A stretch of DNA of 64,000 nt from positions 1-64,000 of the forward strand of contig NZ_JABDRI010000094.1 of the NCBI RefSeq assembly GCF_013041805.1, written 5' to 3'. The number at the start of each line of letters is the position of its first letter. Position 1 is the stretch's first letter. Shown here in pieces: positions 3,792 through 34,139 of the stretch. Source of the stretch: Lutibacter sp. Lineage in GTDB: Bacteria > Bacteroidota > Bacteroidia > Flavobacteriales > Flavobacteriaceae. The notes below the pieces were generated by a model. That model was not told where the DNA came from and did not search any database. It was given only the letters and a program-made list of their open reading frames with translations. The translations under genes and the position numbers were made by a program.

Positions 3792-3904
3792 TTTAAGTCT
3801 TAGTCTAATTTTAAAATTGAAGGCAAATATACAAAACTTAGTTTTTGATATTTTATGTAAAATTTGTTGAGTATTAAATATTTTGATTGGCTTTAACTTA
3901 TGTT

Positions 3905-4804
3905 TTAATCCGGAGTAATTTTCACCTTAATTTCTGGTGCTTCAACTAAATGGAATGTTGCAGAAGCAAACTTAATTTCACCATTTGTTTTTTCAACTTC
4001 TGTTAAAATTTGAGTAAACAATTCAGATTTTATAAACCGTCTTTTTCTAAAATTCACAACATATCTTAATGTAAATTCAACCCAATTATCAGTTGCAATT
4101 ATAGATATCATTGGTTCGCTTTGTGCATTTTCAAGCATAAATTTTTTTTGTAATAAATTCCATTGCTGTTGAGATTTGTCGGTTAGGTCTCCAACGGTTT
4201 TTTTTGCAATCTCTACAAATAATACTTTTGCTTTTGCGTAATTACTACCATATTGTATTGGTATTTTAATTTCATCCCATAAAAAAGGGAAATCACCTGA
4301 ATAATTAAAAACGGGTTCTTTAAAAACAAAACTATTCGCAATTAAAACAATTCTACCATTGTATAAATCTCCATCTACCCATTGTCCAACTTCCATTATT
4401 GTAGTTCGTAATATACCAATATCCATGACGTCACCTTTTATACCTCCTAATTGTACTCTATCCCCTGTTTTGTAAAATCCGCCAAATAAGATAGCCAGCC
4501 AGCCAGCAAACGAAGCAATTATTTCTTGTAAAGCAAAAGCGATACCAGCTCCGGCTACACCTAGTGCAATTGTTAGCCCACCTAATTTATCACTATATAC
4601 AATTGTTATAATTAGTATAGAGAAAAGATATCCTGCAAATGATGAAATTTTTTTTGTTTTATATCTTTGGTTGCTGTCTTTAAGTTTTGAAATGAAATTA
4701 CGTTGAACGGCTTTTATTACAATCCAAATAATTAAAATACCAAATAAAATGATTGCAATTTTCCCAATTGTTGGATCAGATAATATTTTTTTTAATTGTT
4801 CCAT
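3905..4804 (-). CDS. Small-conductance mechanosensitive channel, MscS family
   Basis: N-terminal TM helices followed by the MscS beta-domain motif GDRVQLGGIKGDVMDIGILRTTIMEVGQW. Confidence 0.8.
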   Translation of the reverse strand: MEQLKKILSDPTIGKIAIILFGILIIWIVIKAVQRNFISKLKDSNQRYKTKKISSFAGYLFSILIITIVYSDKLGGLTIALGVAGAGIAFALQEIIASFAGWLAILFGGFYKTGDRVQLGGIKGDVMDIGILRTTIMEVGQWVDGDLYNGRIVLIANSFVFKEPVFNYSGDFPFLWDEIKIPIQYGSNYAKAKVLFVEIAKKTVGDLTDKSQQQWNLLQKKFMLENAQSEPMISIIATDNWVEFTLRYVVNFRKRRFIKSELFTQILTEVEKTNGEIKFASATFHLVEAPEIKVKITPD

Positions 4805-4896
4805 AATTTCATGTTAAAATGAAAGGAATATTGTATACTAAATATACGAAATATATTTAACTGATATAAAGAATATTAAATTAAAGCTAAGGAAAT

Positions 4897-5187
4897 TTAA
4901 TAATAATTAAAAGCCAAAAAAACTATGGTAACACCGACAGCAAATAAGATCAAAACAATTAGTTGTTTTTTGCGCTCTTTAATGGCTTCTTCTTTAATTT
5001 TATTTTTAAGAAGTTTTAATTCAGAGTTTGACACTTTTGGAAAATCATATTCAGGTTTTGATAATTTTTTCTTAGAAAAGTTTGTCTCTCTATTATTTCC
5101 TTTAAATTTATTTCTGCGAGAAACTTTTAAGGCTGCATTTTGCCTTATCCTGTTCATCATGTCCGTCATATGACCTCCAGCACTCAT
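4897..5187 (-). CDS. Hypothetical small lysine-rich protein with a C-terminal membrane anchor. The start codon is uncertain; an internal Met at MTDMMNR is possible.
   Basis: This ORF sits between mscS and the flotillin gene on the same strand. It has a single C-terminal hydrophobic helix, LIVLILFAVGVTIVFLAF. Confidence 0.3.
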   Translation of the reverse strand: MSAGGHMTDMMNRIRQNAALKVSRRNKFKGNNRETNFSKKKLSKPEYDFPKVSNSELKLLKNKIKEEAIKERKKQLIVLILFAVGVTIVFLAFNYY

Positions 5188-5261
5188 TTTTAAACAAGGT
5201 TTTAAATGAACTAACCCTAGTTAAAGGGGTAGTTTACACAATAAATTAAAGTAGTATTTTT

Positions 5262-6692
5262 TTATTCTTCTTTATCTTCAGTTAATTCCGAATGATCTTC
5301 CTTTTTAGGTTCAATAATGTCTTCACCTTTTAAATAATTAGGTAATTGCATACCTGCCATATTAAACATTTCTTGTAATGGAGGTACCGCTTTGTACATT
5401 CCAGAAATAAAGTTTGAGGTAGACGTTTTCCCATCTTTTCCGCCACCATTTTCCCAAACGGTAACTTTATCAATTTTAATATTTTTAATAGCTTCAGCTT
5501 GCGTTTTTACCAATTCAGGTAGCTTATCAGCAATTAATAGCAATGCTGCATTTTGAGCGTCGTCTCCAGAAGCTTTTACAATTGCATCTAAACCTTGCGC
5601 TTGTTTTGTTAATACTTCAAAAATACCTTTTGCTTCGGCTTCTTTTTTCATAAAAATTGCATCAGCTTCACCTTTTGCAATTCTCCTTATTTGTTCTGCT
5701 TCTGCTTCAGCATCAATTTCAATCTTACGCTTATCAATTTGGGCAGGAACAATTATATCAGCTCCTTGTTCAGCTTCTTTACGTTTTGCTCTAGCATCTT
5801 CTGCTATTTTTTCGGCGGCGTAAGCTTCTTCTAAAGCTTTTGCAGCTTGAACTTTTTCAGAGGCAATGGCAATTCTTTCCGCCTCAGCTTCTCGCGACCT
5901 TCTATCAGCATTTGAATTAGCAATTTGAACTTTAGCAGTGTTTTCTCCTTCAACAGCATTTGCATCTGCCGCAGCTACTTGAATACGTTGATCTTGTACT
6001 GCGTTTGCCGCACCAATAGATCCATCTCTATCTTTTTGAGCTACAGAAACTTTTGCTTCATTAATGGCTTTTGCAGCTGCCTCTTTACCTAAAGCCTGAA
6101 TATAACCTGATTCATCATGAATATCGGTGATATTTACGTTGATTAATTTTAAACCTACTTTTTTTAATTCGGCTTCCACACTATGTGTAATATGTGATAA
6201 AAATTGGTCTCTGTCGGAATTAATTTCTTCAATATCCATAGAAGCAACAACTAAACGTAATTGCCCAAAAATAATTTCTTGTGCTAATTCCTGAACCGCA
6301 TCTAAATTTAAACCTAACAAACGTTCAGCGGCATTTTGCATAACACTTGGCTCGGTTGAAATACCAATGGTAAATCTTGAAGGAACATTTACACGTATAT
6401 TTTGTTTACTTAAGGCATTTGTTAAATTGACCTCAATGGACATTGGTGTTAAATCTAGAAACTCATAATCTTGAATAATAGGCCAAATAAATGATGCCCC
6501 ACCATGAATACATTTTGCAGATTTTCCACCACCGGTTTTTCCATAAACAACTAAAATTCTATCAGAAGGACAACGCTTGTATCTTCTAATCATAGAAAAG
6601 AAGAATACAACAACAATAAAAATAACAGCTCCAATTAAATATACAGTGGTTGCTGCAGACTGCAGTGGTAATAATAATGACAATAAATTCAT
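5262..6692 (-). CDS. Flotillin / SPFH (band-7) domain protein, YqiK-like
   Basis: N-terminal TM segment, an SPFH domain, and a long Ala/Glu-rich coiled coil (EAEAERIAIASEKVQAAKALEEAYAAEKIAEDARAKRKEAE). Confidence 0.8.
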   Translation of the reverse strand: MNLLSLLLPLQSAATTVYLIGAVIFIVVVFFFSMIRRYKRCPSDRILVVYGKTGGGKSAKCIHGGASFIWPIIQDYEFLDLTPMSIEVNLTNALSKQNIRVNVPSRFTIGISTEPSVMQNAAERLLGLNLDAVQELAQEIIFGQLRLVVASMDIEEINSDRDQFLSHITHSVEAELKKVGLKLINVNITDIHDESGYIQALGKEAAAKAINEAKVSVAQKDRDGSIGAANAVQDQRIQVAAADANAVEGENTAKVQIANSNADRRSREAEAERIAIASEKVQAAKALEEAYAAEKIAEDARAKRKEAEQGADIIVPAQIDKRKIEIDAEAEAEQIRRIAKGEADAIFMKKEAEAKGIFEVLTKQAQGLDAIVKASGDDAQNAALLLIADKLPELVKTQAEAIKNIKIDKVTVWENGGGKDGKTSTSNFISGMYKAVPPLQEMFNMAGMQLPNYLKGEDIIEPKKEDHSELTEDKEE

Positions 6693-6699
6693 AGTTTTT

Positions 6700-7278
6700 T
6701 TATTTAGTTAATTTTTTTACAAGTAATATTTCAGCACTTACAATTTCTATCACTTGCACCATGCTGCCAGTTTCTAAATCTTCAGTTTCATCGGTTATAG
6801 CTTCTAATTCACGTAAGCTACCTTGCACTTTAATTTGTACTTTCCCCATTTTTGAACGGTTTGCACCAATTGGTAAATAAACTTCACCAATAACGCCAAC
6901 TGCATTTTTTATTTTTAAAGTTCCAGATTCGGCTAATTTATGCATCCAATAAAATAATGATGATGTTAAAACCATCATTAGTAAACCAGCTAGAGTAGAA
7001 ATTATAATTGTTGTAGAAGTTGATATCCCATTATCAATGCACGCAATTCCACTCCAACCAAAAATAGTAAAAAAGGCTACTATATTTTTAAAGGTAAAAA
7101 ATTGAAATCCAACGCCACCATCATCAGCTTCAAAATCTGAAGCGTCAGCTTCCATATCAGCATCTCCACCACCAATAAATGTTAACAAAAATATTACAAG
7201 AAAAACTGCAGAACCAACCAAGGCTATAATCCAATAGGTTTGTTCGAGGGATGACATTTCGGCAAAAAATTCCTTCAT
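6700..7278 (-). CDS. NfeD-like / YqiJ-like membrane protein, the usual flotillin operon partner
   Basis: Multi-TM N-terminal half and a C-terminal OB-like soluble domain. It lies 7 bp upstream of the flotillin gene on the same strand, the classic yqiJ-yqiK arrangement. Confidence 0.65.
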   Translation of the reverse strand: MKEFFAEMSSLEQTYWIIALVGSAVFLVIFLLTFIGGGDADMEADASDFEADDGGVGFQFFTFKNIVAFFTIFGWSGIACIDNGISTSTTIIISTLAGLLMMVLTSSLFYWMHKLAESGTLKIKNAVGVIGEVYLPIGANRSKMGKVQIKVQGSLRELEAITDETEDLETGSMVQVIEIVSAEILLVKKLTK

Positions 7279-7466: not shown

Positions 7467-7886
7467 ATGACAAATAAAATTGAAGTTAGTTGGAAAGGTG
7501 AAATGCTTTTTGAATCTGTGGCTCCTGAAGGAACCGTGATGATTGATGCTGATGAAGCAGTTGGCGGACAAGGAAAAGGATTACGTCCAAAGGCAATGAT
7601 GTTAACATCATTAGGAGGTTGTACCGCTATGGATGTTGCTTCATTATTAAAAAAAATGAGAGCTGAAGTTGATGATTTTAAAGTTGAAATTGAAGCTAAT
7701 TTAACAGATGAACACCCAAAATATTATGATAAAGTACACGTGATTTATCGTTTTTTTGGAAGCGATTTTAAAAAGGATAAAATTGAAAAATCGGTAAATC
7801 TTTCTGTTGAACGTTATTGTGGTGTTTTTGAAATGTTTCGCCAGTTTTCTAATATTTCTCATGAAATAGTTTACATGGAGCAATAA
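7467..7886 (+). CDS. OsmC/Ohr family peroxiredoxin-like protein
   Basis: OsmC-like core motif LTSLGGCTAMDVASLLKKMR with the conserved Cys; length 139 aa. Confidence 0.75.
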   Translation: MTNKIEVSWKGEMLFESVAPEGTVMIDADEAVGGQGKGLRPKAMMLTSLGGCTAMDVASLLKKMRAEVDDFKVEIEANLTDEHPKYYDKVHVIYRFFGSDFKKDKIEKSVNLSVERYCGVFEMFRQFSNISHEIVYMEQ

Positions 7887-13588: not shown

Positions 13589-15655
13589 ATGAAAATTCAA
13601 ACTATTAAACCTAAAATAGGAGTATTTCTTCTATTCACAAGTCTGTTTTTAGGCTGTGTTAAAGATAAAGATTTTTCAACTCCAACAGTAAATTGTGTTG
13701 AGACTGAAATTTCTGTAACCAATACAATTCAACAGGTAAAAGATATGTATACATTCGGGAGTGCAACTAAAATAGATACTGATGTGATTATTGAAGGTTA
13801 TGTGGTTTCAAATGACGAATCAGGGAATATTTATAAAACACTTTCCATACAAGATAAACCTGAAAATCCAACATCGGCAATCAAAATCTCTATAGATGAA
13901 ACCAATTTGTACACAACGTATGATGTTGGTAGAAAAATTTATGTAAAGCTTAAAGGTTTGGCAGTTGGGTATAGTTTTGGGAGTATCCAAATTGGACAAG
14001 CAGTTGGTGGTGAATTGGCAAGAATTTCATCTTTTGAAGTAAAAAATCACATTTTTCGTTCGTGCGAAGTGGCTGAAATCATTCCTAAAAGAGTAGCTAT
14101 TTCAGAGTTGAATGAGGGCCTATTAGAAATGTTAATTGAAATTGAGAATGTACAATTTAAAACTACTGATTTAGGTTTGTCTTATGCAAACGTTGAAGAC
14201 ACTGAAACTGTAAATCGCGTATTAGAAAACTTTGACAGTAATTGTAACTTAGTGGATGAAGTTATTGTTCGAAATAGCGGTTTTTCAAAATTTAAAAACC
14301 AATTATTACCTGAAGGAAAAGGAAGTGTTGTAGCAGTTTTTGGAAATTATTATGATGATTTTCAGTTGTATATTAGAGATACAGATGACGTGAAATTTAC
14401 TGAACAAAGATGTGACTATTTCAATGCTTTAACTCCTACAATTTCAATTTCTGAAGTGAAAGAAATGTATCAAGGATCTATGGTTGAATTTGGAGTAGAC
14501 ATTAATTATATAATTGAAGGCTATGTTGTTTCAAGTGATGAATATGGAAATTTTAAAGAAAAATTAGTCGTGCAAGACGCTACCGAAAATCCAACTTCAG
14601 GAATACAATTACTAATTGATAAAGAAGCAATTTTTGAAGATTATAATATTGGAGATAAAGTTTATATAAAACTGAATAAATTGTATATGACAAAGAATGT
14701 TGATGTTTTAACAATTGGGTTTCCAAGTGGAGATAAGATTACGAAAATTGAAGCTTCAGAGGTAAACAATTTTGTCTATAAGAGTGAAGAAAATTTTGAA
14801 ATAACACCAACTGAGATTCCAATTTCAGAAGTTCAAAATCCTGATTATGAAAACACATTGGTACGTATTTTAAACGTGCAATTGGTTGAAAATGAATTAG
14901 GAAAAGCATTTGCTTTTTTCACAGGAGATGATGACGGAGTACGAACACTTGAAACTTGTGGAGAAACTACAAAAATATTGGTATTTACAAATGGAGATGC
15001 CACTTTTGCCCATGAATTATTTCCTGAAGGACATGGTTCAATTACAGGTATTTTAAGTGATAATTTAAAAATTAGAACTACTGAAGATGTTCAATTTAAA
15101 GAGCCGTTTGAAGTTTGTCCTGTTATTATTCCAAAAATTATGATTACTGAAGTTGCTGACCCCAGAAATGATGTGTCGGCTCGTTTTGTTGAATTGTATA
15201 ATGCAGGAGATTCTGAAATAAATTTAACTGGTTGGAAATTAAATAAATATATAAACGGTTCAACTACAATCTCTAGTTCGCCAGTTGAATTAAATGGATA
15301 CACTATTCCTGTTGGCGGTTTTATAATTATTGCAAATACGGGATATGCAGCTATTTTTAATGATGTGCCAACAATTCAATCAACCTATATTTCTGGAAAC
15401 GGTGATGATGTATATGAGTTAGTGGATAATACAGGAACCGTTATTGATGTTTTTGGAGTTATAGGGGAAGATGGAAATGGAACTAATTGGGAATATTTAG
15501 ATGGAAGAGCGGTTAGAAATTTAGATATTTCAGAACCAAATATAACGTTTAGAGCTACTGAATGGACTATCTATTCAGGTGCTTCAAATAATTTAATTTT
15601 AAGTCCTAATTCACCTCAAAATGCTCCAAATGACTTTAATCCAAGAGTGCGATAA
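13589..15655 (+). CDS. Lipoprotein with two tandem ~100-aa OB-fold-like repeat domains and a C-terminal lamin-tail domain (LTD)
   Basis: Lipobox LFLGC. Repeat one is IEGYVVSNDESGNIYKTLSIQDKPENPTSAIKISIDE...GRKIYVKL. Repeat two is IEGYVVSSDEYGNFKEKLVVQDATENPTSGIQLLIDKE...GDKVYIKL. The LTD signature is MITEVADPRNDVSARFVELYNAGDSEINLTGWKL. It lies 11 bp after the TBDR-like gene. Confidence 0.5.
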   Translation: MKIQTIKPKIGVFLLFTSLFLGCVKDKDFSTPTVNCVETEISVTNTIQQVKDMYTFGSATKIDTDVIIEGYVVSNDESGNIYKTLSIQDKPENPTSAIKISIDETNLYTTYDVGRKIYVKLKGLAVGYSFGSIQIGQAVGGELARISSFEVKNHIFRSCEVAEIIPKRVAISELNEGLLEMLIEIENVQFKTTDLGLSYANVEDTETVNRVLENFDSNCNLVDEVIVRNSGFSKFKNQLLPEGKGSVVAVFGNYYDDFQLYIRDTDDVKFTEQRCDYFNALTPTISISEVKEMYQGSMVEFGVDINYIIEGYVVSSDEYGNFKEKLVVQDATENPTSGIQLLIDKEAIFEDYNIGDKVYIKLNKLYMTKNVDVLTIGFPSGDKITKIEASEVNNFVYKSEENFEITPTEIPISEVQNPDYENTLVRILNVQLVENELGKAFAFFTGDDDGVRTLETCGETTKILVFTNGDATFAHELFPEGHGSITGILSDNLKIRTTEDVQFKEPFEVCPVIIPKIMITEVADPRNDVSARFVELYNAGDSEINLTGWKLNKYINGSTTISSSPVELNGYTIPVGGFIIIANTGYAAIFNDVPTIQSTYISGNGDDVYELVDNTGTVIDVFGVIGEDGNGTNWEYLDGRAVRNLDISEPNITFRATEWTIYSGASNNLILSPNSPQNAPNDFNPRVR

Positions 15656-25167: not shown

Positions 25168-25881
25168 TTACGATAAAAAGTTTTTTTCAATAAATTGGTG
25201 AAACTTTTCTTTGTACTGATCACTTACGGGAATATAAACCTTATCAAAAACAATTCTATTACGTTCAATAGTAGAAATTTTATTTAAGTTTACAATATAA
25301 GAACGGTGTACACGCATAAATGAATTGTTTTCTAATTGTTTGTCCATTGCTTTCATACTTAACAGCGTCATAATTGGTTTTTCATTTGCTAAGTGAATAC
25401 GTATATACTCTCGCATTCCTTCAATATATTTAATTTCAGATATTTTAACGCGTATAATTTTATATTCTGATTTAATAAATAAAAAATCATCGTTTCCCTT
25501 TAATTCTTCACTTGAATTATTTTGTAATGTAAACCATTCTTGTGCTTTAGTTGCTGCTTTTAAAAAGGTTGCATAATCTATTGGCTTTAATAAATAGTCT
25601 AATGCATCAACACGAAAACCTTCTAAAGCATATTCACTGTAGGCAGTTGTAAAAATAATTTTAGGGGCATTGCTTAAAGATTTTACAAAATCTATTCCGT
25701 TTAAATCGGGCATATTTATATCAACAAATAGTAAGTCAACCTCATTCTCTTGCACATATGAAATGGCTTCTAAAGGGCTTTCAAAACCTTGTAAAAGTTC
25801 TAAAAAAGGTGTTTTATGCACATAATTAGAAATTTGTTTTAATGCTAAAGGCTCGTCATCTATGGCAATACATTTAATCAT
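25168..25881 (-). CDS. LytTR-family two-component response regulator
   Basis: Receiver domain (IAIDDEPLAL...DLLFVDINMPDLNGIDF) plus a C-terminal LytTR DNA-binding domain (IRVKISEIKYIEG...FMRVHRSYIVNLNKI). A 4-bp overlap with the upstream kinase gene implies translational coupling. Confidence 0.85.
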   Translation of the reverse strand: MIKCIAIDDEPLALKQISNYVHKTPFLELLQGFESPLEAISYVQENEVDLLFVDINMPDLNGIDFVKSLSNAPKIIFTTAYSEYALEGFRVDALDYLLKPIDYATFLKAATKAQEWFTLQNNSSEELKGNDDFLFIKSEYKIIRVKISEIKYIEGMREYIRIHLANEKPIMTLLSMKAMDKQLENNSFMRVHRSYIVNLNKISTIERNRIVFDKVYIPVSDQYKEKFHQFIEKNFLS

Positions 25882-26984
25882 AGCGGAATACTTAAATTTA
25901 CTTTATAAATTTCTTTATTTTCTGAAATAGTAAAATCAAAATTATTAAATAATAAAGCGATTCTTTTTTTAGTGTTCTCAATTCCTATACCTGAATTTTC
26001 ATCTGTAATTTTTGAATGGTTACTGTTTTCAATCTCAAAATGAAGTTTATTTTGAGAAAACCTCATTATAATAGTTATAAAAGAATCTTTATTATAACTT
26101 ATACCATGTTTAAATGCATTTTCTAACAATGAAGTAAATAGTAATGGTGGAATAAATTTTTCAGGAATTTCTGAAGGAATTTGAACAGATATTTTTACTT
26201 TATTTGAAAAACGAAGTTTCATTAACTCCACATAGCTGTTAATAAATTCAACTTCCTTTTTTATAGGAGTCATTTTTTCTTCCGAATCGTAAAGCAAATG
26301 ACGCATTAAATTAGATAGTTTTATAATAGCTTGTTTAGCTTCTTCTGAATCAATATCAACCAATGCGTGAATATTGTTCAATGTATTCATAAAAAAGTGT
26401 GGACTTACCTGGTTTTTTAGAATAGCTAACTGATTTTCTATATTTTCAGTTTGAAGTTTCATTTTTTCCTGATCTAAACTTGCCCATCTCATTGAAACCT
26501 GTAAACCTGCATCAAAACCGACCAATAAAATAGCTAGAATTAAAAAGTTAGCAAATGGTGGAATAGAATCTGGTTTGTTTTGCCTTGGCAGCATTCGAGG
26601 TCTTTCGTTCATCGAAAATTCAGAAGGAGTTTGTTGTGTACCATCCATAGCACTTCTTGCAGGTGGTGGAGGCGTCCTATTTTGTTGATTGTTATTTGTA
26701 GTATGAAAGAAAAATAAACCTAAAGTAATTGCTCCAATTAAAAGTGTGGTACTTATAAAATAGGTTACTCTTTTCCCTTTAAAGAATAATTTTGGAAGTA
26801 GAATATATCTATTTATTAAAAAGACAACAAGTAAAGGCACATAATTTAACCAAACCATAAAAATATGATCCCAGTCAATTTCGTCTTCAAATCTTCCAAA
26901 TAATAACGGAGATGCAAATAATAATGCCCAAAAAGCAGTAATTATTAAAGGTTGAAAGCGGTCAAAATTACTTGTTGTTTTCAT
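25878..26984 (-). CDS. LytS/YehU-type sensor histidine kinase (His_kinase / HATPase)
   Basis: N-terminal TM helices, the LytS-family H-box region SPHFFMNTLNNIHALV, and a C-terminal ATPase segment. Confidence 0.8.
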   Translation of the reverse strand: MKTTSNFDRFQPLIITAFWALLFASPLLFGRFEDEIDWDHIFMVWLNYVPLLVVFLINRYILLPKLFFKGKRVTYFISTTLLIGAITLGLFFFHTTNNNQQNRTPPPPARSAMDGTQQTPSEFSMNERPRMLPRQNKPDSIPPFANFLILAILLVGFDAGLQVSMRWASLDQEKMKLQTENIENQLAILKNQVSPHFFMNTLNNIHALVDIDSEEAKQAIIKLSNLMRHLLYDSEEKMTPIKKEVEFINSYVELMKLRFSNKVKISVQIPSEIPEKFIPPLLFTSLLENAFKHGISYNKDSFITIIMRFSQNKLHFEIENSNHSKITDENSGIGIENTKKRIALLFNNFDFTISENKEIYKVNLSIPL

Positions 26985-27072
26985 TAATGCTTTTCAATTA
27001 TGGTTTTAAATAATTGATAAAATTTGTCCGTGCAACTATATTAGAAGCACGAACAAATATACCAAACTTAAA

Positions 27073-28491
27073 CTAATTCAAATAGTTATTAACTGCTGTA
27101 CTTCGACTTGAAGCATGTGATTTTAAAGTTGTAATTGCGGAGTAAAATGAACTACTGCTATTTAGAAATGTGAAACCTGAAACTTCTGTTGTTGCATAAG
27201 GCTCAACCAAAGCAGCATATGTGTCATAAACTCCTTGAATATAAGATGTTTCAAATGGGCCATCTATAGTAGCTTGTACATATTCATTGTATTTAGCTTT
27301 GTAAACGTCATCTTCATATAAATATTCAATTAATGGCCAATCTCCTGATAGATCTGAAAAATTTAAATTTAAAGAGCCACCCATTTTTCCATCTTGAAGT
27401 GCTTCATTATTATCCCAAGGGATCCACGTAAGTAAACTGTTGTCTGGATTATTGTATAAATAATAATTGTGTTCCATAACTCCATACGTATCCCAATTTT
27501 GAATAATTGTATTTACAGCCAAATAATTCAAGAAAACATCAGTATCAAAAACGGCATCTAAACCAGCTCTCCATGTTTCAGGGTCTGTTATTCTTGTATC
27601 ACTGTGTAAAGCTGTGAAAACGGATTCAATATCTGACCAATCTGCTTCGTCTTCATTTGTTTTCTTTTCAAAACCGTCTTCATTAAAAGTGCCTTCTGCA
27701 AAGCTTGACCCGTAATCTTCAGGCTTGTATAAATTACCATCATCACTTGAAAATTGTGTATCTAATACTGTTCCATCAACTTCTTCAACCAAAGTGTACA
27801 ATCCGAAATATTGAGGTCCATCACCATAATCAACATATAATGTGTAAAATGACGTATTTGAAACAGCCAATCCTGCATTTTGGAAAACTTCTGCAGCTAC
27901 TTTTTCTCTTAAAAATGAGCTGTCATCATAGTTGTTCTTTAAACTAAATTTTTTGAAACCATAAAAACGTTGGTTGTCAATTTGCGGATAATCATCTTCA
28001 AATTCATCAAAATCCATTTTAAATGAAAGTTTTAAAATACCTGATCCCCAAGCACTTGCCAAACTAGAGTTCCCTTTAAATCGTAAACCTACTTTATACC
28101 ATTCAATTCCTTTGTAAAAAACAGATGCAGGGACAAAAATAGGATCCTCATCATCAGAATTAAAAGAACCACTTGAACGTCCAAATGTTCCGTATAAGTC
28201 AGTCATATCGGCTAACATAGCTGCCCAATTGTTTTCTGATATTACAAAATCCAATCGTTTTACAGCTGTATCGTCAAATACTTCTGTGAAATTTGGGTCT
28301 GCATCTTTACTGTGAGTTTCAGTTGTCCAATCTGTAGCTACAAAATCTGAATCTATAACTTCTACATCTGTATCTGTATTTACAACTTCTGTTTCTGAAA
28401 TTGAATCATCATCTGAGCAGCTTATAAATAAGTAACCTACTAGAAAAAGCATACTTACAATTGTTGAGATTTTTAAAATTGATGTTTTCAT
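27073..28491 (-). CDS. CotH-family (atypical kinase) lipoprotein
   Basis: Lipobox LFISCSDD, and the CotH-like signature block EHNYYLYNNPDNSLLTWIPWDNNEAL. This call comes from motif memory and is not searched. Confidence 0.55.
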   Translation of the reverse strand: MKTSILKISTIVSMLFLVGYLFISCSDDDSISETEVVNTDTDVEVIDSDFVATDWTTETHSKDADPNFTEVFDDTAVKRLDFVISENNWAAMLADMTDLYGTFGRSSGSFNSDDEDPIFVPASVFYKGIEWYKVGLRFKGNSSLASAWGSGILKLSFKMDFDEFEDDYPQIDNQRFYGFKKFSLKNNYDDSSFLREKVAAEVFQNAGLAVSNTSFYTLYVDYGDGPQYFGLYTLVEEVDGTVLDTQFSSDDGNLYKPEDYGSSFAEGTFNEDGFEKKTNEDEADWSDIESVFTALHSDTRITDPETWRAGLDAVFDTDVFLNYLAVNTIIQNWDTYGVMEHNYYLYNNPDNSLLTWIPWDNNEALQDGKMGGSLNLNFSDLSGDWPLIEYLYEDDVYKAKYNEYVQATIDGPFETSYIQGVYDTYAALVEPYATTEVSGFTFLNSSSSFYSAITTLKSHASSRSTAVNNYLN

Positions 28492-28551
28492 TTTTTATTG
28501 TTTTTTTATTTGAGACGAAGCTCCATATTTTTGATAGTTTTTGAAATAAAA

Positions 28552-28590
28552 ATCAACGAATTAGTGATTTTTATCAACGAATAATGATTT
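28552..28590. promoter_or_regulatory. Tandem 21-bp direct repeat upstream of the CotH-like gene
   Basis: atcaacgaattagtgattt and atcaacgaataatgattt; the ATCAA cores at 28552 and 28573 are exactly 21 bp apart. The repeat lies 61-99 bp upstream of the ATG at 28491. Confidence 0.45.
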
Positions 28591-29296
28591 ATTTATTATG
28601 AATAGTATACGTATATTTTAAACCAATTATATTCGTTGTTTTTGGAATACTTTTGTTAAGCTCTTTTTCTATCCGATAAAACAAACTTATTTTACCTAAT
28701 TTTTTAAATTTGTAATCGGTTCCTAAAGTCAAACGATATTTATCAAATCCATTTTTTTCTCCTTCTTCAAAATGATTAAAAATTTCAGCAGAAAATTCAG
28801 GGTCTAATTTCCAATTTTTAAAGTTGTAGTCAATTGCAGTTTTAAAACGAATATGCTGATTGGCATAATCTCCTTCAGAATTACTTACTCCTAATTCATT
28901 TTTATTTTGATAACGAAACCTATATTTAAGTGTGAAATCGTTGATTTTATGTTTGTATGATGCATCTGCATTAAATCTAAAATGATTTTCGTATCCTTGA
29001 ATATTTCCTTCAGTATCATTTTCTTTAATATATCTTATTCCAGCCCCAAGTGTAAATTTTTTAGAAACTGAATATTCGGCATTAAGTTGTGTAAAATATT
29101 TATCTATTGTAGAAATATCTTCTTTTAAACGAAGCTGCTCTTCAATACCAAAATTCCACTTTTTATTTAATTTATATTCCAATGCAATGGTTGTCCAATT
29201 GGCCAAATCACTATTTTGAGAATATCCAAAATTTGTAATTATTACAATTAAAAGGATTGAAAGTAAAACTGTTGAATTATTTATTTTAGTTGCCAT
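28589..29296 (-). CDS. Small outer-membrane beta-barrel protein, DUF2490-like
   Basis: Signal peptide, then an alternating aromatic/hydrophilic beta-strand pattern; about 235 aa. It sits within the CotH/DUF4956/VTC neighbourhood. Confidence 0.45.
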   Translation of the reverse strand: MATKINNSTVLLSILLIVIITNFGYSQNSDLANWTTIALEYKLNKKWNFGIEEQLRLKEDISTIDKYFTQLNAEYSVSKKFTLGAGIRYIKENDTEGNIQGYENHFRFNADASYKHKINDFTLKYRFRYQNKNELGVSNSEGDYANQHIRFKTAIDYNFKNWKLDPEFSAEIFNHFEEGEKNGFDKYRLTLGTDYKFKKLGKISLFYRIEKELNKSIPKTTNIIGLKYTYTIHNK

Positions 29297-29322
29297 TTAT
29301 TGATGTGTTTTGGAGGTTAATT

Positions 29323-29925
29323 TTATTTTCCTTTGAAATAGAAAATGGTAACTTTAGCGATATCTCGTAAGAAATCTATATCACCAATTGTAATATTATT
29401 AATTTCTAAACCGGTTCTGTTTTCTAAATCACTTTTAAGTATTTCGTAATTTTCAGGCTTTATGTTTTCAATGTTTTCATAAACAATAGATTTTGATTCT
29501 TCTTGTTTTAAAGCCCAATACCTTTCAATAAGTACAAGAATGATAATGATAATTGTATTGGCTCCTAAAATTTCAGCATAACTCATTTTTTTATTGGCCA
29601 AAGAATTAATTACTGACACACCAATAACCACAAATAAATAGGTCATTTCTTTTATAGGAATAGCATCTGTTCGGTATCGAATAATTCCAAAAATGGCAAA
29701 TAATCCAAGAGCCATCCCAATATCTAGTTCATACTTTTTTAATGTAAAACATAGAAAAAATACAATAACGCTGATTAAATAATAAGTAAACACGTAATCT
29801 TTACGTTTAGAATATGGATAATAAACGAAACGTATTATAAAAGTTAAAAATATAAAATTGATAAAAAATCTAAAAATCATTTTTAAAAAATCATCGTCAA
29901 AAAGAGGTATGTCTAAAAATTCCAT
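29323..29925 (-). CDS. Polytopic membrane protein, DUF4956-like
   Basis: Four to five TM helices and about 200 aa. Its position between the VTC-like and CotH-like genes matches the neighbourhood I remember for this family. Confidence 0.45.
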   Translation of the reverse strand: MEFLDIPLFDDDFLKMIFRFFINFIFLTFIIRFVYYPYSKRKDYVFTYYLISVIVFFLCFTLKKYELDIGMALGLFAIFGIIRYRTDAIPIKEMTYLFVVIGVSVINSLANKKMSYAEILGANTIIIIILVLIERYWALKQEESKSIVYENIENIKPENYEILKSDLENRTGLEINNITIGDIDFLRDIAKVTIFYFKGK

Positions 29926-29936
29926 TTGTAAAGGTA

Positions 29937-30686
29937 TTAAGCTGTTAAATTATTAATTTTGATAAGTTTTCTTTTAAATCTATTGTATTTCAATTGTGGA
30001 TAAATATGTGTCATTCCAATACAATATTTACTAATACTATATGGGTTTATACATTTGTTTTTTAGTGCTTTTACAACAGGAGAAGCTCTATTAAAACGCT
30101 CTTGTTTTACTTCAATAATTACTAAATTTGAATAGTATTTTTCAGACTTGTTCATTTTGTAGAGAAGATTTAAATCTATTGTAAGTCTTTCTTTTACTTT
30201 AATATTTACTAAGGTTATTCTATTAAATTTATTCCAAATAATAGGTTTTAACTTCATTTTTTCTGAAGTGGTTTTTTCTATAAAATCTATTAAGCTTTTT
30301 GGTAAATTTGGTTCAAAGTCTTTAATTTGAATTCTGGATTTTGCGGTTTTTCCTTTACCGTCTTTTTGTTTAATTTCAAGAAAACAAATGTCAGATTCAA
30401 CGTACTTTCGCATTCTAACTTTTGTTCTGTTTATTTTTCCATTATGATGATCATTATAAAACTTTTTATCTTCCGTATCAAAGTATAGTGATGAATAAGT
30501 CATCATTCTATTTTCATTAATTTGAAGAACTTTGTATTGATCTTTAATAGTTTCTAAAACTTCAATTAATTTTTTTTCGTGAATTACAAATTTGGTATCT
30601 GTTCGTTTCATTAATGAAACACTATCCATTTCTTTTAAAGAAATAGATTCCAAATTATTTATAATATGTGATAGTTGTTCTTTCAT
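29937..30686 (-). CDS. VTC-domain (CYTH-like, polyphosphate-polymerase-like) protein
   Basis: N-terminal MKRTDTKF-type motif, then YFDTED, RTKVRMRKY and CFLEIKQKDGKG segments reminiscent of the VTC catalytic domain; about 250 aa. Confidence 0.5.
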   Translation of the reverse strand: MKEQLSHIINNLESISLKEMDSVSLMKRTDTKFVIHEKKLIEVLETIKDQYKVLQINENRMMTYSSLYFDTEDKKFYNDHHNGKINRTKVRMRKYVESDICFLEIKQKDGKGKTAKSRIQIKDFEPNLPKSLIDFIEKTTSEKMKLKPIIWNKFNRITLVNIKVKERLTIDLNLLYKMNKSEKYYSNLVIIEVKQERFNRASPVVKALKNKCINPYSISKYCIGMTHIYPQLKYNRFKRKLIKINNLTA

Positions 30687-30729
30687 GATGGAACAAATAA
30701 ACTACGTTTAGATAGTAATTGGAAAACAA

Positions 30730-30759
30730 ATCAATGAACTGGGAAGTTTTATCTATGAA
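30730..30759. promoter_or_regulatory. Direct repeat ATCAATGAA / ATCTATGAA, 21 bp apart, upstream of the VTC-like gene
   Basis: Cores at 30730 and 30751, lying 44-73 bp upstream of the ATG at 30686. Confidence 0.4.
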
Positions 30760-30867
30760 TTAGTTTCTATTAGTTGCAGATTTTTTTGTGAATAGTTGAA
30801 AAAAACCGCTTATACACAAACTATTAATTTATGATAAGCGGCTAGTTAACCAAACAAACAAACCTAA

Positions 30868-31257
30868 TTAATTCTTTCTTTTTTTTTCTCTTTTTTTAGA
30901 ACTATTATTTTTTAAATATGTTGTATATAATTTTTTTTGATCATTTGTTAATAACGCTTTAATATCGTTTTCAAGTGAGTTTTTTAAAGCTTCCATTTCA
31001 TTTCTATCAGGTTTTCTAGAACTTGTTTTATCTTCCACTTCTTCAAAATGTTTAGTATATAATTCCAATACTTGAGTTTCCTGTTCATCTGATAATAATA
31101 GGTCGTCTGATAAATCACTAACCATTGTATTAATTTTTTTAGCTGTTGGTAATGCTGGAGGTCCGCTTTGTCCACCTCTTTGTTGTCCGCATGCAGATGT
31201 TGTAATTACCAATACCACTGCTAACGTTTTCCAAATCTTGTTTATTTTTAATTTCAT
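30868..31257 (-). CDS. Periplasmic lipoprotein with LTXXQ motifs (Spy/CpxP-like family)
   Basis: Lipobox TSAC, two LxxxQ helices (LSDEQETQVLELY and LTNDQKKLYTTYL), and a basic C-terminal tail. Confidence 0.45.
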   Translation of the reverse strand: MKLKINKIWKTLAVVLVITTSACGQQRGGQSGPPALPTAKKINTMVSDLSDDLLLSDEQETQVLELYTKHFEEVEDKTSSRKPDRNEMEALKNSLENDIKALLTNDQKKLYTTYLKNNSSKKREKKRKN

Positions 31258-31328
31258 TTTTTTAATTTTTAAAAGGTTATTAAATTATGAAACAAAGAAA
31301 AGTAAGTTTTGAATAATTAAAAATAACA

Positions 31329-31356
31329 ATCAATGTTCAGAGAGTTTTCATCAACC
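31329..31356. promoter_or_regulatory. Direct repeat ATCAATG / ATCAACC, 21 bp apart, upstream of the LTXXQ gene
   Basis: Cores at 31329 and 31350, lying 72-99 bp upstream of the ATG at 31257. Confidence 0.35.
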
Positions 31357-31392
31357 AAATAAGTATAATTAATAACAACTGTATTTTTGGAA

Positions 31393-33132
31393 TTATACAG
31401 GCCAACTATTAAAAGGTTGTTTTTCGAACTGCATCGTGCCATCTTCTCCTTTAAATATATTAATCCACGCTTTCCAGTTTTCATTGTCTAATTCGGGGTA
31501 ATCTAATCGATAGTGACTACATCTACTTTCTGTTCGCATGATAGAAGCTTTTAATTTCATTTCAGCCGTAGTAATCATATTTGCCGTTTCATGTGCTAAG
31601 CGGAGTTCATGCATATTAGCAGCTCGTAACATGGGTACATGATGATCTCTTAATTCTTCAATATAGGCCAAAGCGGCGTTTAATAAATTTCCTTTTTTTA
31701 TGTAAATGATAAAATTAGGAATCATAATGCTTTGTAAGGTTTGTGTTACCCAAGCCGGACTATAACCTGCTTCTCGTTTTAAAGGGGCTAATATTTCTTC
31801 TTGAATTTCATTTATTTTTGAAGATGAAATAGAAGATTTTTCAACTGTTTTGCTATAAATCGCAGCTGCTTCACCAGCAATTCCACCTTGTACTGCAGAA
31901 CCAGCTAACGATGAACCTATTTGTGTATAAATTGCTCCTGCCATATAAGATCCTAAAGCATCTCCTGCAGCATATAACCCTGGAATATTAGATTCACATT
32001 TATCATTTATAGGAACCAGGCCTTCAGCCTTGTGAATTGACATTCCTGCTGAAGAACCTCCAACTACACTACCTCCCATTCCTGGAGGACCTCCTTCACG
32101 GTCTTTTCTTGGAGGTCTTTTATTATCGTCTTCTTCTCCACCTGGTCGGCTACTAGCTTTATTAAATTCTTCAGGTTTGTAGGGTCCTCCTGCTATTACT
32201 GTATCCTGTTTTCCCATTCTTGGAGGTCCGATTTGCGCAGAACCACCAGTCATATAGGCGGTGTAATTCATATCAACGCCTAAATCATGACGAATTTCAA
32301 TACTAGTAGTTTCAGGTTTTTTCTCAAACATATCTCCCCAACCATTATAACATGCAGCGGCATTTTCAGATCTAGCTGGGTGACCATCATTCCATTCTTT
32401 ACCTGTAACTTTTGCACCAATATTGTAGGCCATTATGGTTCCATCATGTGTTAAGTCGCAAATAGGAAAACCATTAGGTTTAAACCCCCCTGCGCCAGTG
32501 CAAAGTATAACACTTTTAGCTTCATAAAAAATCACTTTTTCTTTGTCAATACTAAAACCCGCAGCCCCTACAATTTTGTTGTTTTCTTTTATTAAATGAG
32601 TAATTGCAATTCGTTCCTGTAGCGGAATATTGCGTTCATTTATGGGTTTACTAAAACTTTTGTTGTACAATGTAGAATCAAAAAACCCCCATTCTTTTAA
32701 TTCGTTAACCCGATCTAATGAATGTTCTGCCAATTGTTTAGTATAAACCGTATTATTGGTTCCTAATGCTGATCTAGAAACAGCTTCAGTAAATTCGTCA
32801 ATACTTAATTTTTCTTTTTTTGGATCGTAAGCAAAAATTCCTTTGGCAAAAGGCGTTTGACCCGAAGCACCCAATCTTCCTTTGGAAACCATTAATACTT
32901 TAGCACCGGCATCGTGCGCTTTTACAGCCGCAAAAAGTCCTGCCATTCCACCACCAATAACTAGTACATCGGTACTTATTTTATCACTTTCTAAACTATC
33001 TATATCTATTTCAGGTTCATTTAGCGCCCAGTCTAAAGGTACTCCCATAGCTGAAATAGCGGCAAAACTTGCAGCGCCTCCTGCTAAGGTTATAAATTTT
33101 CTTCTTGAGAGATTATTTGTTGATTTTTTCAT
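31393..33132 (-). CDS. Tat-exported FAD-dependent oxidoreductase of the fumarate-reductase / succinate-dehydrogenase flavoprotein superfamily, carrying an unusual Gly/Pro-rich insertion
   Basis: Twin-arginine signal SRRKFITLAGGAASFAAISAMG. Dinucleotide-binding motif VLVIGGGMAGLFAAVKAHDAGAKV. The C-terminal family motif RTESRCSHYRLDYPELDNENW. A low-complexity insert around residues 296-365 (positions about 32040..32250). Confidence 0.7.
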   Translation of the reverse strand: MKKSTNNLSRRKFITLAGGAASFAAISAMGVPLDWALNEPEIDIDSLESDKISTDVLVIGGGMAGLFAAVKAHDAGAKVLMVSKGRLGASGQTPFAKGIFAYDPKKEKLSIDEFTEAVSRSALGTNNTVYTKQLAEHSLDRVNELKEWGFFDSTLYNKSFSKPINERNIPLQERIAITHLIKENNKIVGAAGFSIDKEKVIFYEAKSVILCTGAGGFKPNGFPICDLTHDGTIMAYNIGAKVTGKEWNDGHPARSENAAACYNGWGDMFEKKPETTSIEIRHDLGVDMNYTAYMTGGSAQIGPPRMGKQDTVIAGGPYKPEEFNKASSRPGGEEDDNKRPPRKDREGGPPGMGGSVVGGSSAGMSIHKAEGLVPINDKCESNIPGLYAAGDALGSYMAGAIYTQIGSSLAGSAVQGGIAGEAAAIYSKTVEKSSISSSKINEIQEEILAPLKREAGYSPAWVTQTLQSIMIPNFIIYIKKGNLLNAALAYIEELRDHHVPMLRAANMHELRLAHETANMITTAEMKLKASIMRTESRCSHYRLDYPELDNENWKAWINIFKGEDGTMQFEKQPFNSWPV

Positions 33133-33769
33133 TTTTTGAAGTTTTAAAAAAATAGGTTTTTAGCAAATAGAAAATACCACTAACAACTATTAATAAATAG
33201 TAAATTGAGAAAGAGGTATTGCTATGTCGCCCTATATTAATCACATGCCAAGTGGCTGTTACTATAAAAAGTAGTGTAAAATAACCATGTAAACTTCTCC
33301 AGATTCTGTAACTTAAATTCAATTTGAACCTACAGAAAGAAGTAATTATTAAAATGACCATGCTAGTATATGCAATTAACCCTAAAATTACACCTGCGCT
33401 ACTAAAGGTTGTTATCAACCTATAAAAAGCATCAGTAGGTGTAACTGTATTATCGAAAAACTTTGGAACTATGATAAAGAAAGGATGCAATAACAATATT
33501 GAAATAAATACATATCCAACTATTTTATGAATTTTAAGCACATTTACCATTCGAATATCTTTTACTAATTTTCTATTCATTCTAGTTGAAAAGAATTGTG
33601 AAACGAGCAAAGTAAATCCTACAATAGTAGTAATTGATAAGATTTCCTTAAGTGAATTTCTTCTAGGAAATTCTGATATATAATAAAGCAATATAGGTAC
33701 AATTATAAAAAGGATTGTGAGTATTATAAGTCGGAATATGTGTCGTTTCTTTTTCATAATTAGCCCCAT
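33113..33769 (-). CDS. Di-haem ferric-reductase-like transmembrane protein (MsrQ/YedZ-type b-type cytochrome)
   Basis: Six predicted TM helices and two His pairs with the bis-haem spacing: HKIVGYVFISILLLH (H-x14-H) and HGYFTLLFIVTATWH (H-x13-H). It overlaps both neighbouring genes by a few codons. Confidence 0.55.
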   Translation of the reverse strand: MGLIMKKKRHIFRLIILTILFIIVPILLYYISEFPRRNSLKEILSITTIVGFTLLVSQFFSTRMNRKLVKDIRMVNVLKIHKIVGYVFISILLLHPFFIIVPKFFDNTVTPTDAFYRLITTFSSAGVILGLIAYTSMVILIITSFCRFKLNLSYRIWRSLHGYFTLLFIVTATWHVINIGRHSNTSFSIYYLLIVVSGIFYLLKTYFFKTSKNEKINK

Positions 33770-33975
33770 GAAACGATTACTGGAATGGATTTTTCTGGTG
33801 TGATTGTTATCGCATCAACTGGACAATACATTCTGCATAAATGACAGATTTGACAATCTTCAGGAAATAAAATTTCAGCTTTTTTTGAATCAGGATTCAA
33901 CCTGATTACATCAGTAGGGCAGCTTTTAATACACTCTTCGCACCCTATACAACCGTTAATACTTTTAATTGCCAT
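33760..33975 (-). CDS. Cytoplasmic 2[4Fe-4S] dicluster ferredoxin
   Basis: Two CxxCxxCxxxCP motifs, CIGCEECIKSCP and CQICHLCRMYCP; 71 aa and no signal peptide. Confidence 0.8.
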   Translation of the reverse strand: MAIKSINGCIGCEECIKSCPTDVIRLNPDSKKAEILFPEDCQICHLCRMYCPVDAITITPEKSIPVIVSWG

Positions 33976-34039
33976 GATTCCTTGTTTTCTAGTCTCAATT
34001 TAGATAACAAAGTAATGCTCTATGCTAGTTATATTAAAA

Positions 34040-34070
34040 AAGAATCAATGAGTTGAGTTAAAGAATCAAT
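34040..34070. promoter_or_regulatory. Perfect 10-bp direct repeat AAGAATCAAT x2, 21 bp apart, upstream of the ferredoxin operon
   Basis: Copies at 34040..34049 and 34061..34070, lying 65-95 bp upstream of the ferredoxin ATG at 33975. Confidence 0.45.
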
Positions 34071-34139
34071 AAATGAGATAATTTTAACAACGAATAAAAA
34101 TTAAAAAAATGATATTTTAAGACTTAGAAAAGATTGATA

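Follow-up and report, generated by a model that had tools for sequence, protein, structure and literature searches.

Phased direct repeats upstream of four transcription units in a Lutibacter gene cluster and their probable LytTR response regulator

The DNA considered here, referred to as the window, is a stretch of 64,000 nucleotides from Lutibacter sp. (contig NZ_JABDRI010000094.1, positions 1 to 64,000), in which a cluster of minus-strand genes carries the same element in front of four transcription units. Read on the coding (minus) strand, this element is TTCRTTGAT-N12-TTCRTTGAT, a pair of direct repeats in 21-bp phase. It precedes a ferredoxin operon, a small lipoprotein gene, a VTC-DUF4956-DUF2490 operon, and cotH, which encodes a CotH-family lipoprotein. 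The cluster ends with the genes of a histidine kinase and of a response regulator with a LytTR domain. We regard it as likely that the repeats are operators of this response regulator, acting as partner of the adjoining kinase, and the four units are proposed as members of its regulon.

Repeats, genes, and transcription units of the cluster

All eight half-sites of the four pairs were found where the initial annotation had placed them when the sequence was checked directly (Table 1), and the four pairs are, as it had stated, intergenic and located on the same strand as the genes. Half-sites of 9 nt and a spacer of 12 nt were observed in four out of four promoters, with 43-71 nt between the end of the proximal repeat and the ATG (60 nt in case of cotH, the ATG of which is at 28491). 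The pattern ATCAAY-N15-ATCAAY has 4 matches in the window, as opposed to 0.08 +/- 0.27 expected from dinucleotide-preserving shuffles, and 0 out of 100 shuffles reached this number. Relaxing the pattern to ATCWAY, which brings in the VTC site, results in 5 matches with 0.41 expected. In the histogram of same-strand ATCAAY spacings between 6 and 60 bp, 4 pairs occur at 21 bp, 2 at 54 bp, and 0-1 nearly everywhere else; 21 bp is the only enriched spacing. A repeat finder, run independently, also picked up direct repeats spaced by 21 bp at two of the promoters, those of cotH and of the ferredoxin operon. The absence of the phased pair from the other intergenic regions of the window, already noted in the initial annotation, is borne out by the pattern counts, by the spacing histogram, and by the weight-matrix scores given below. 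The sole ATCAAY-N15-ATCAAY match outside the cluster (5712-5738) falls within an open reading frame (5262..6692, minus strand) and shows none of the flanking features of the operator; it was rejected as an operator and taken as a chance match.

Upstream of the ferredoxin pair, a third half-site (TTCGTTGTT, minus strand, 34086-34094) follows in phase at a distance of 21 bp, which corrects the previous count of two copies. A third repeat is not a general feature of the other three window promoters. An inverted half-site, TATTCGTTG on the plus strand at 28630-28638, lies in the 3' end of the DUF2490 gene, approximately 50 nt upstream of the cotH operator, and may be a chance match.

Table 1. Genes, repeats, and further features of the minus-strand cluster, ordered by position in the window.
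Feature	Position	Strand	Details
Response regulator	25168..25881	-	Pfam Response_reg 2.8e-19 (residues 6-109), LytTR 1.3e-20 (residues 141-231)
Membrane histidine kinase, PF06580 His_kinase family	25878..26984	-	Pfam 4.9e-24 (residues 185-262)
Hairpin followed by UUUUAU	27023..27057	-	Between cotH and the kinase gene; -24.9 kcal/mol, z = -6.8
CotH-family lipoprotein	27073..28491	-	Pfam CotH 1.3e-69
Expected position of -7-like box, cotH promoter	28516..28523	-	GAGCTTCG, degenerate
cotH operator	28544..28584	-	Distal TTCGTTGAT 28573-28581, proximal TTCGTTGAT 28552-28560; 38.1 bits
cotH pair	28552/28573		ATCAACGAA in both copies
DUF2490 outer-membrane barrel	28589-29296	-	Pfam 2.6e-29
DUF4956 membrane protein	29323-29925	-	Pfam 9.7e-55
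VTC-domain protein	29937-30686	-	Pfam 3.3e-32
-7-like box, VTC promoter	30694..30701	-	TTTATTTG; starts 30 nt after proximal TTG
VTC-DUF4956-DUF2490 operon operator	30722..30762	-	Distal TTCATAGAT 30751-30759, proximal TTCATTGAT 30730-30738; 38.9 bits
VTC pair	30730/30751		ATCAATGAA/ATCTATGAA
Terminator hairpin after lipoprotein gene	30804-30843	-	U-run; z = -5.9 (folding)
Small lipoprotein, 129 aa	30868..31257	-	Sub-threshold Pfam DUF4890 match only
-7-like box, lipoprotein promoter	31293..31300	-	TTTCTTTG
Small lipoprotein gene operator	31321..31361	-	Distal TTGGTTGAT 31350-31358, proximal AACATTGAT 31329-31337; 33.1 bits
Lipoprotein pair	31329/31350		ATCAATG/ATCAACC
Flavin adenine dinucleotide (FAD) flavoprotein, fumarate-reductase type	31393-33132	-	Twin-arginine-like signal; Pfam, NCBIfam
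Ferric-reductase-like membrane protein	33113-33769	-	Pfam, NCBIfam
2x[4Fe-4S] ferredoxin	33760-33975	-	Pfam, NCBIfam
-7-like box, ferredoxin-operon promoter	34008..34015	-	TTACTTTG
Ferredoxin operon operator	34036..34097	-	In phase TTCGTTGTT 34086-34094, TTTATTGAT 34065-34073, CTCATTGAT 34044-34052; 14.7 and 16.5 bits (two registers)
Ferredoxin pair	34040/34061		AAGAATCAAT in both copies

The VTC, DUF4956, and DUF2490 genes form a single operon (28589..30686, minus strand), as do the ferredoxin, ferric-reductase-like, and flavoprotein genes (31393..33975, minus strand). The kinase and regulator genes overlap by 4 nt, and the receiver domain of the regulator contains the acidic pair D8/D9 and D54 as predicted phospho-acceptor. 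Among the cluster genes, open reading frames and Pfam gave no second gene for a DNA-binding protein. Most gene labels of the initial annotation are backed by Pfam. The label of an LTXXQ lipoprotein could not be confirmed, with DUF4890 as the only, sub-threshold Pfam match, and the window lipoprotein was not equated with the LTXXQ protein of the loci with extracytoplasmic function (ECF)-type promoters described below, the single pairwise comparison being non-significant (E = 0.008). In case of the presumed LytS/LytTR pair, the LytTR part is confirmed by Pfam and the LytS part is not. A strict LytS sensor kinase combines a 5TMR-LYT membrane sensor domain with PF06580; the kinase of the window is not LytS proper, because Pfam shows no domain besides PF06580, and no NCBIfam model matched it.

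The hairpin downstream of cotH probably acts as an intrinsic terminator, and the kinase/regulator pair may therefore be a separate unit. Together with the hairpin downstream of the lipoprotein gene, it divides the cluster into the ferredoxin operon, the lipoprotein gene, the VTC operon, cotH, and a probably separate kinase/regulator unit. A hairpin 3' of the flavoprotein gene is not significant (z = -0.66). A consensus terminator scan found no minus-strand terminator within its loop limit and thereby missed both strong hairpins, and a sigma-70 promoter scan of the window was uninformative, the number of promoter-like matches being equal to the shuffle expectation.

Promoter anatomy and conservation in related loci

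Related loci were collected by a scan for CotH relatives, which resulted in 80 genome loci with 10-kb flanks (1.48 Mb), and their gene order was determined by tblastn with eleven window proteins. A 41-bp weight matrix derived from 11 seed operators was run on this sample and on the window and yielded 30 non-overlapping sites of at least 14.6 bits. Except for a single site in L023, which precedes an Lcl_C lipoprotein gene, all sites (29 out of 30) are located upstream of lipoprotein, VTC/DUF4956, cotH, or ferredoxin genes and occur in the window, in L006, and in the seven loci that carry an orthologous kinase/regulator pair. With a threshold of 14 bits, the 1.48 Mb of related loci hence showed no match other than at promoters of this gene set, L023 apart.

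When the 30 sites and their flanks were aligned without gaps, information was confined to four blocks, namely the distal half (TTsGTWGATAAAAT), the proximal half (CCAGTTCRTTGATT), a T-run approximately 7 nt downstream of the proximal half, and a TTnCTTTG box that starts at a distance of exactly 30 nt downstream from the proximal TTG. The rest, with the 25 nt upstream and most of the spacer, is random. Judged from this alignment, the pattern is a phylogenetic footprint, as opposed to a trace of recent common descent. The half-sites have been kept at orthologous lipoprotein, VTC, cotH, and ferredoxin promoters of Lutibacter, Maribacter, and uncultured Flavobacteriaceae with flanks and spacer randomised, so that the conservation anticipated for these sites is found. 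The operator is thereby precisely defined as TTsRTWGAT-N12-TTCRTTGAT at 30 nt from a -7 box.

The TTnCTTTG box resembles the -7 element of Bacteroidota; the primary sigma factor of flavobacteria recognises TAnnTTTG at -12 to -5 (PMC9723704). Aligned on this element, the proximal 9-mer occupies approximately -48 to -40, the distal 9-mer -69 to -61, and the T-run approximately -34 to -32, i.e., the position of the -33 element, without the G of the -33 consensus. The operator at approximately -69 to -40 would thus abut a weak -33 region, which is the position predicted for an activator, with the start site placed according to the box. The proximal TTGAT itself was rejected as a -33 element due to its distance of 30 nt from the -7-like box, which exceeds the spacing of roughly 19 nt in Bacteroidota promoters. 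In case of the VTC promoter, the -7-like box ends 7 nt before the ATG (region 30684-30701). The same closeness is seen at orthologous VTC promoters (L001, L004, L006, L126, and L158), and the VTC mRNA is therefore probably leaderless or nearly so. Leaderless mRNAs have been reported to be rare (5.5%) in a flavobacterium (PMC9723704).

The arrangement of 9-nt half-sites and 12-nt spacer recurs in the 26 sites of other genomes, and a second matrix, for which these 26 sites were used without those of the window, places the window sites on top with 38.9, 38.1, 33.1, and 16.5/14.7 bits, followed by a next best score of 0.2 bits. In 200 simulated windows the best score of this matrix had a mean of 4.0, a 95th percentile of 11.0, and a maximum of 17.6 bits. 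As motif matches, the three window operators of VTC, cotH, and the lipoprotein gene are beyond doubt.

In L001, L003, L004, L005, L009, L013, and L017, which belong to Lutibacter, Maribacter, and uncultured Flavobacteriaceae, the cluster is followed by a kinase/regulator pair orthologous to that of the window (57-80% identical). Operators are present in all seven of these loci (2-5 each) and in only 2 of the 73 others (Fisher p = 1.1e-8, a value that overstates independence, as the compared loci are phylogenetically related). Considering the two exceptions, the contig of L006 ends 92 nt past cotH, and L023 is discussed below. None of these operators occurs in loci where all LytTR genes are paralogous (39-51% identity). 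The expected co-occurrence with the LytTR pair is thus observed, and operator and regulator gene appear to be inherited together. The coupling of the electron-transfer module with the VTC/CotH genes, initially proposed for this cluster, holds in other genomes as well.

Metagenome contigs were searched with the pattern TTNRTWGATAAAANNNNNNNNTTYRTTGATT without any gene as reference, and the 115 resulting loci fell into two groups by matrix score. Approximately 33 loci score high and show the CCAG and T-run features, often along with the TTTG box, and approximately 26 of these precede VTC, DUF4956, CotH or CotH-like, lipoprotein, ferredoxin, or Lcl_C genes. The remaining matches (approximately 80 out of 115) are low-scoring, lack the flanking features, and were set aside as chance-like. 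Operators together with kinase/regulator genes were found on contigs L119, L163, L174, and L193; the gene order of L174 is that of the window minus the ferredoxin operon, and in L163 and L193 (regulator 57% identical) the operator precedes an operon containing both kinase and regulator.

Lipoproteins with an Lcl C-terminal domain (PF07603) occur as additional regulon members elsewhere (L023 12026-13168, L127, L164, and L002 11641-12849). Some of their genes are preceded by the LytTR operator, and the one of L002 is located after cotH in a cluster with ECF-type promoters. Four tandem paralogues of the small lipoprotein are encoded in L009 of Maribacter polysaccharolyticus (3410-5803), at least two of them with an operator of their own (25.4 and 32.5 bits). 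CotH proteins that share 63-72% identity with the flavobacterial protein were found in Shewanella, Colwellia, Thalassotalea, Sulfurovum, Thermodesulfobacteriota, Hydrogenedentota, and others (L022, L024, L025, L027, L032, L035-L037, L042, L046, L047, L049, L052, L055, L060, L061, L063, L066, and L067). Given the unusually high identity across phyla, this distribution suggests horizontal transfer of cotH.

A second kinase/LytTR pair, oriented divergently from an EF-hand lipoprotein-cotH operon, was observed in Maribacter and relatives (L007, L010-L012, L041, L071, and L076). The intergenic region (L010 9476-9668 and its equivalents) contains TTCACTTAA-N12-TTCGCTGAT or AACACTTAA in 21-bp phase, followed after 28 nt by a CAyCTTTG box. 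Similar to the window, this paralogous system combines a pair beside cotH, the 21-bp phase, and a downstream CTTTG box, but its 9-mer (WWCACTTAA or TTCGCTGAT) differs, its regulator is only 42% identical to that of the window, and its regulatory genes are divergent. Two regulator lineages with two 9-mers and one geometry are what would be expected of a family of LytTR activators.

A different arrangement was found in 32 out of 80 loci, with 1-7 co-directional copies (108 in total) of sCrCAAGTTTTT-N14-gCATCTAAA, in which AAGTT and TCTAA are separated by 16 nt, a gap typical of promoters of ECF sigma factors. The copies precede VTC, cotH, EF-hand, and other genes, and the motif has the -35/-10 geometry of an ECF-sigma promoter. 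No locus is shared between the 9 loci with operators and the 32 loci with this motif. In L002, with copies at 5912-5938, 6998-7024, 7786-7812, and 14735-14761 (further examples are L008, L014, L020, and L073), the array starts with genes of an ECF sigma factor (Sigma70_r2 and r4_2), a small membrane protein, and an LTXXQ protein, continues with EF-hand, VTC-DUF4956-DUF2490-CotH, Lcl_C, Cthe_2159, and YHYH genes, and carries the motif before several units. Control of the same structural genes thus seems to rest with an ECF sigma factor in the majority of Flavobacteriaceae and with LytTR systems in others, which suggests regulator replacement for one conserved gene set.

The regulator of the sites and rival explanations

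Direct observations are the motif and its statistics, the conservation and fixed geometry of the sites, and their co-occurrence with the regulator gene. From these we infer binding by the regulator of the cluster, activation rather than repression, and the position of the start site. According to the mechanism that we propose, a signal would act on the kinase, which would phosphorylate the regulator at the predicted acceptor D54. A dimer of the regulator would then bind the two 9-bp direct repeats (TTsRTWGAT), the centres of which are 21 bp apart and which are therefore expected on the same face of the helix. Positioned just upstream of the weak -33 region, the bound dimer would recruit or stabilise RNA polymerase with the primary sigma factor, and the ferredoxin/ferric-reductase-like/flavoprotein operon, the lipoprotein gene, the VTC-DUF4956-DUF2490 operon, and cotH would be turned on together. 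As related genomes keep the sites alongside the neighbouring LytTR regulator, the repeats are very probably binding sites of this regulator. Repeats of 9 nt separated by 12 nt are the classical LytTR arrangement. The LytTR consensus of Nikolskaya and Galperin (2002) reportedly reads [TA][AC][CA]GTTN[AG][TG], which is matched by TTCGTTGAT at 8 out of 9 positions. LytTR operators have been described as two direct (or inverted) repeats of 9-11 nt, 11-13 nt apart and without a common consensus (PMC4847170), and the architecture of paired repeats of approximately 9 bp with a spacer of approximately 12 bp, to which the initial annotation had referred, agrees with this description and with PMC4227749. 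The refuting checks that it had suggested, on background frequency, conservation, and co-occurrence, were all run in silico, and its reading withstood each of them. On the whole, the reading of a locally encoded LytTR regulon is supported in silico by statistics, conservation, co-occurrence, and architecture, with binding as the predicted consequence.

Several points weigh against this reading. No operator is located upstream of the kinase/regulator genes and a strong hairpin parts them from cotH, due to which autoregulation is uncertain. In the window, no clear -7-like box is seen at the cotH promoter. The ferredoxin site is the weakest of the four, and its 14.7-16.5 bits do not exceed the null maximum of 17.6; it leans on its three-fold phasing and on the sites carried by orthologous ferredoxin promoters (28.5 bits in L013, 27.6 in L005, 16.9 in L009, and 16.5 in L001), and its proximal pair keeps the usual distance to the -7-like box. 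An operator of 33.6 bits is present in L023, where no LytTR gene was found within 10 kb. The scan covered loci of 21 kb only, and the relatedness of the compared loci has to be borne in mind for the Fisher test.

L023 would also be accounted for if the operators were real and bound by another protein, be it a further LytTR paralogue of Bacteroidota or an unrelated regulator encoded elsewhere, and cross-talk is conceivable given the similarity of paralogue operators in Flavobacteriaceae (TTCGCTGAT compared to TTCATTGAT). We consider this unlikely, since the operators strictly track the orthologous pair, are missing from all loci that have only paralogues, are of LytTR type in their architecture, and are kept before the operon with kinase and regulator even on the metagenome contigs with a regulator of 57% identity (L163 and L193). 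Repression, or a dual role, of the local regulator is quite unlikely as well. Certain sites are indeed repressed by LytTR proteins, e.g., bsaA by AgrA (PMC4227749), but the operators of the cluster are located wholly upstream of the presumed -33 region at a fixed distance of 30 nt from the -7-like box and overlap neither this box nor the start site, the T-run without the consensus G fits an activator-dependent promoter, and the geometry is like that of AgrA-activated promoters (PMC4227749).

It is very improbable that the repeats are intrinsic promoter elements, such as a UP-like element or the site of an alternative sigma factor. The fixed distance to the -7-like box and the ECF-sigma-type bipartite motif that drives the same genes in other Flavobacteriaceae would be compatible with such a role, but a direct repeat, two-fold and once three-fold, at helical phase is unlike sigma recognition, a -7-like box for the primary sigma factor is already present, and the co-occurring gene encodes a LytTR protein and no sigma factor. 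Chance matches in AT-rich intergenic DNA are refuted and of next to no probability: despite a G+C content of the window of 30% and the intragenic, probably fortuitous pair at 5712, the observed number far exceeds the shuffle expectation, the enrichment is confined to one spacing, the sites but not their flanks are kept across genera, and a matrix built independently of the window recovers them. An explanation at the RNA level was dropped, as Rfam found no RNA family across the window.

Wider reading and comparison with known systems

LytTR response regulators are abundant in Bacteroidota, and a literature search retrieved no account of an operator or a regulon, either for LytTR regulators of Flavobacteriia or for this gene set. 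By this comparison the type of mechanism is known, and the well-defined candidate regulon and its operator are new. The CotH/VTC/DUF4956 set is conserved from Firmicutes to Bacteroidota without a known function and is here coupled with a ferredoxin/flavoprotein module; with one regulator and four units, the regulon may serve as a genetic handle on this function. The ECF-type control elsewhere is independent evidence that the genes form one functional unit and represents a clean example of apparent regulator replacement.

Taking all observations together, it is tempting, though doubtful, to see in the operator the mark of a conserved envelope-response regulon of Bacteroidota, the core of which is a machine of unknown function. 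Polyphosphate, or a related phosphorylated product, would be synthesised and exported by the VTC enzyme together with the DUF4956 membrane protein and would cross the outer membrane through the DUF2490 barrel. Outside the cell, it would be used by the kinase-like CotH lipoprotein at the surface, which in other genomes is accompanied by EF-hand or Lcl_C lipoproteins. Co-induction would extend to a periplasmic flavoprotein reductase that the ferredoxin supplies via the haem membrane protein. On these assumptions the module would have been re-wired at least three times, by the LytTR pair of the window, the paralogous LytTR pair, and an ECF sigma factor, and such repeated re-wiring suggests one physiological response entered via different sensors.

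Among known systems, BtsS/BtsR (YehU/YehT) and YpdA/YpdB of Escherichia coli share with the window a PF06580 sensor and a receiver-LytTR regulator, as well as two direct repeats approximately two helical turns apart before few target genes; YpdB binds GGCATTTCAT twice (PMC4847170). BtsR is the nearest NCBIfam model for the regulator (NF008677), but the score of 127.8 bits is below the equivalog cut-off of 246. Judged by this comparison, the regulator is a relative of the LytS/LytTR-type systems of E. coli and not an orthologue of BtsR. Further differences are the half-site TTsRTWGAT, the promoters of Bacteroidota -33/-7 type, and the number of targets, with at least four units (CotH, VTC, DUF4956, DUF2490, and redox genes) as opposed to one pyruvate-related transporter gene.

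Similar to the systems of AgrA (Staphylococcus aureus), ComE, PlnC/PlnD, and FsrA, the paired direct repeats of the window would lie right upstream of the predicted promoter. At P2/P3 of S. aureus, an AgrA dimer occupies two direct repeats just upstream of sub-optimal core elements that need the activator (PMC4227749). The kinase of the window belongs to a family different from that of AgrC, and phylum and promoter type differ as well. In contrast to the Agr and Com circuits, the cluster contains no peptide pheromone, AgrB/AgrD-like genes, or ATP-binding cassette exporter, due to which nothing suggests quorum sensing; between 25168 and 35243, no pheromone precursor, processing, or export gene was found near the kinase/regulator genes. 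A sequence search against solved structures retrieved receiver domains only and no LytTR-DNA complex for a comparison of contact residues. Concerning the target genes, Whitfield et al. (2020, PMC7112168) described an accessory module of CotH, polyphosphate polymerase (VTC), and DUF4956 that adjoins pel loci in streptococci, clostridia, and bifidobacteria, and these three families are clustered in the window as well. The pel-linked module represents a gene linkage of Gram-positive bacteria described without a regulator or operator, to which the window adds the DUF2490 barrel and the putative LytTR operator.

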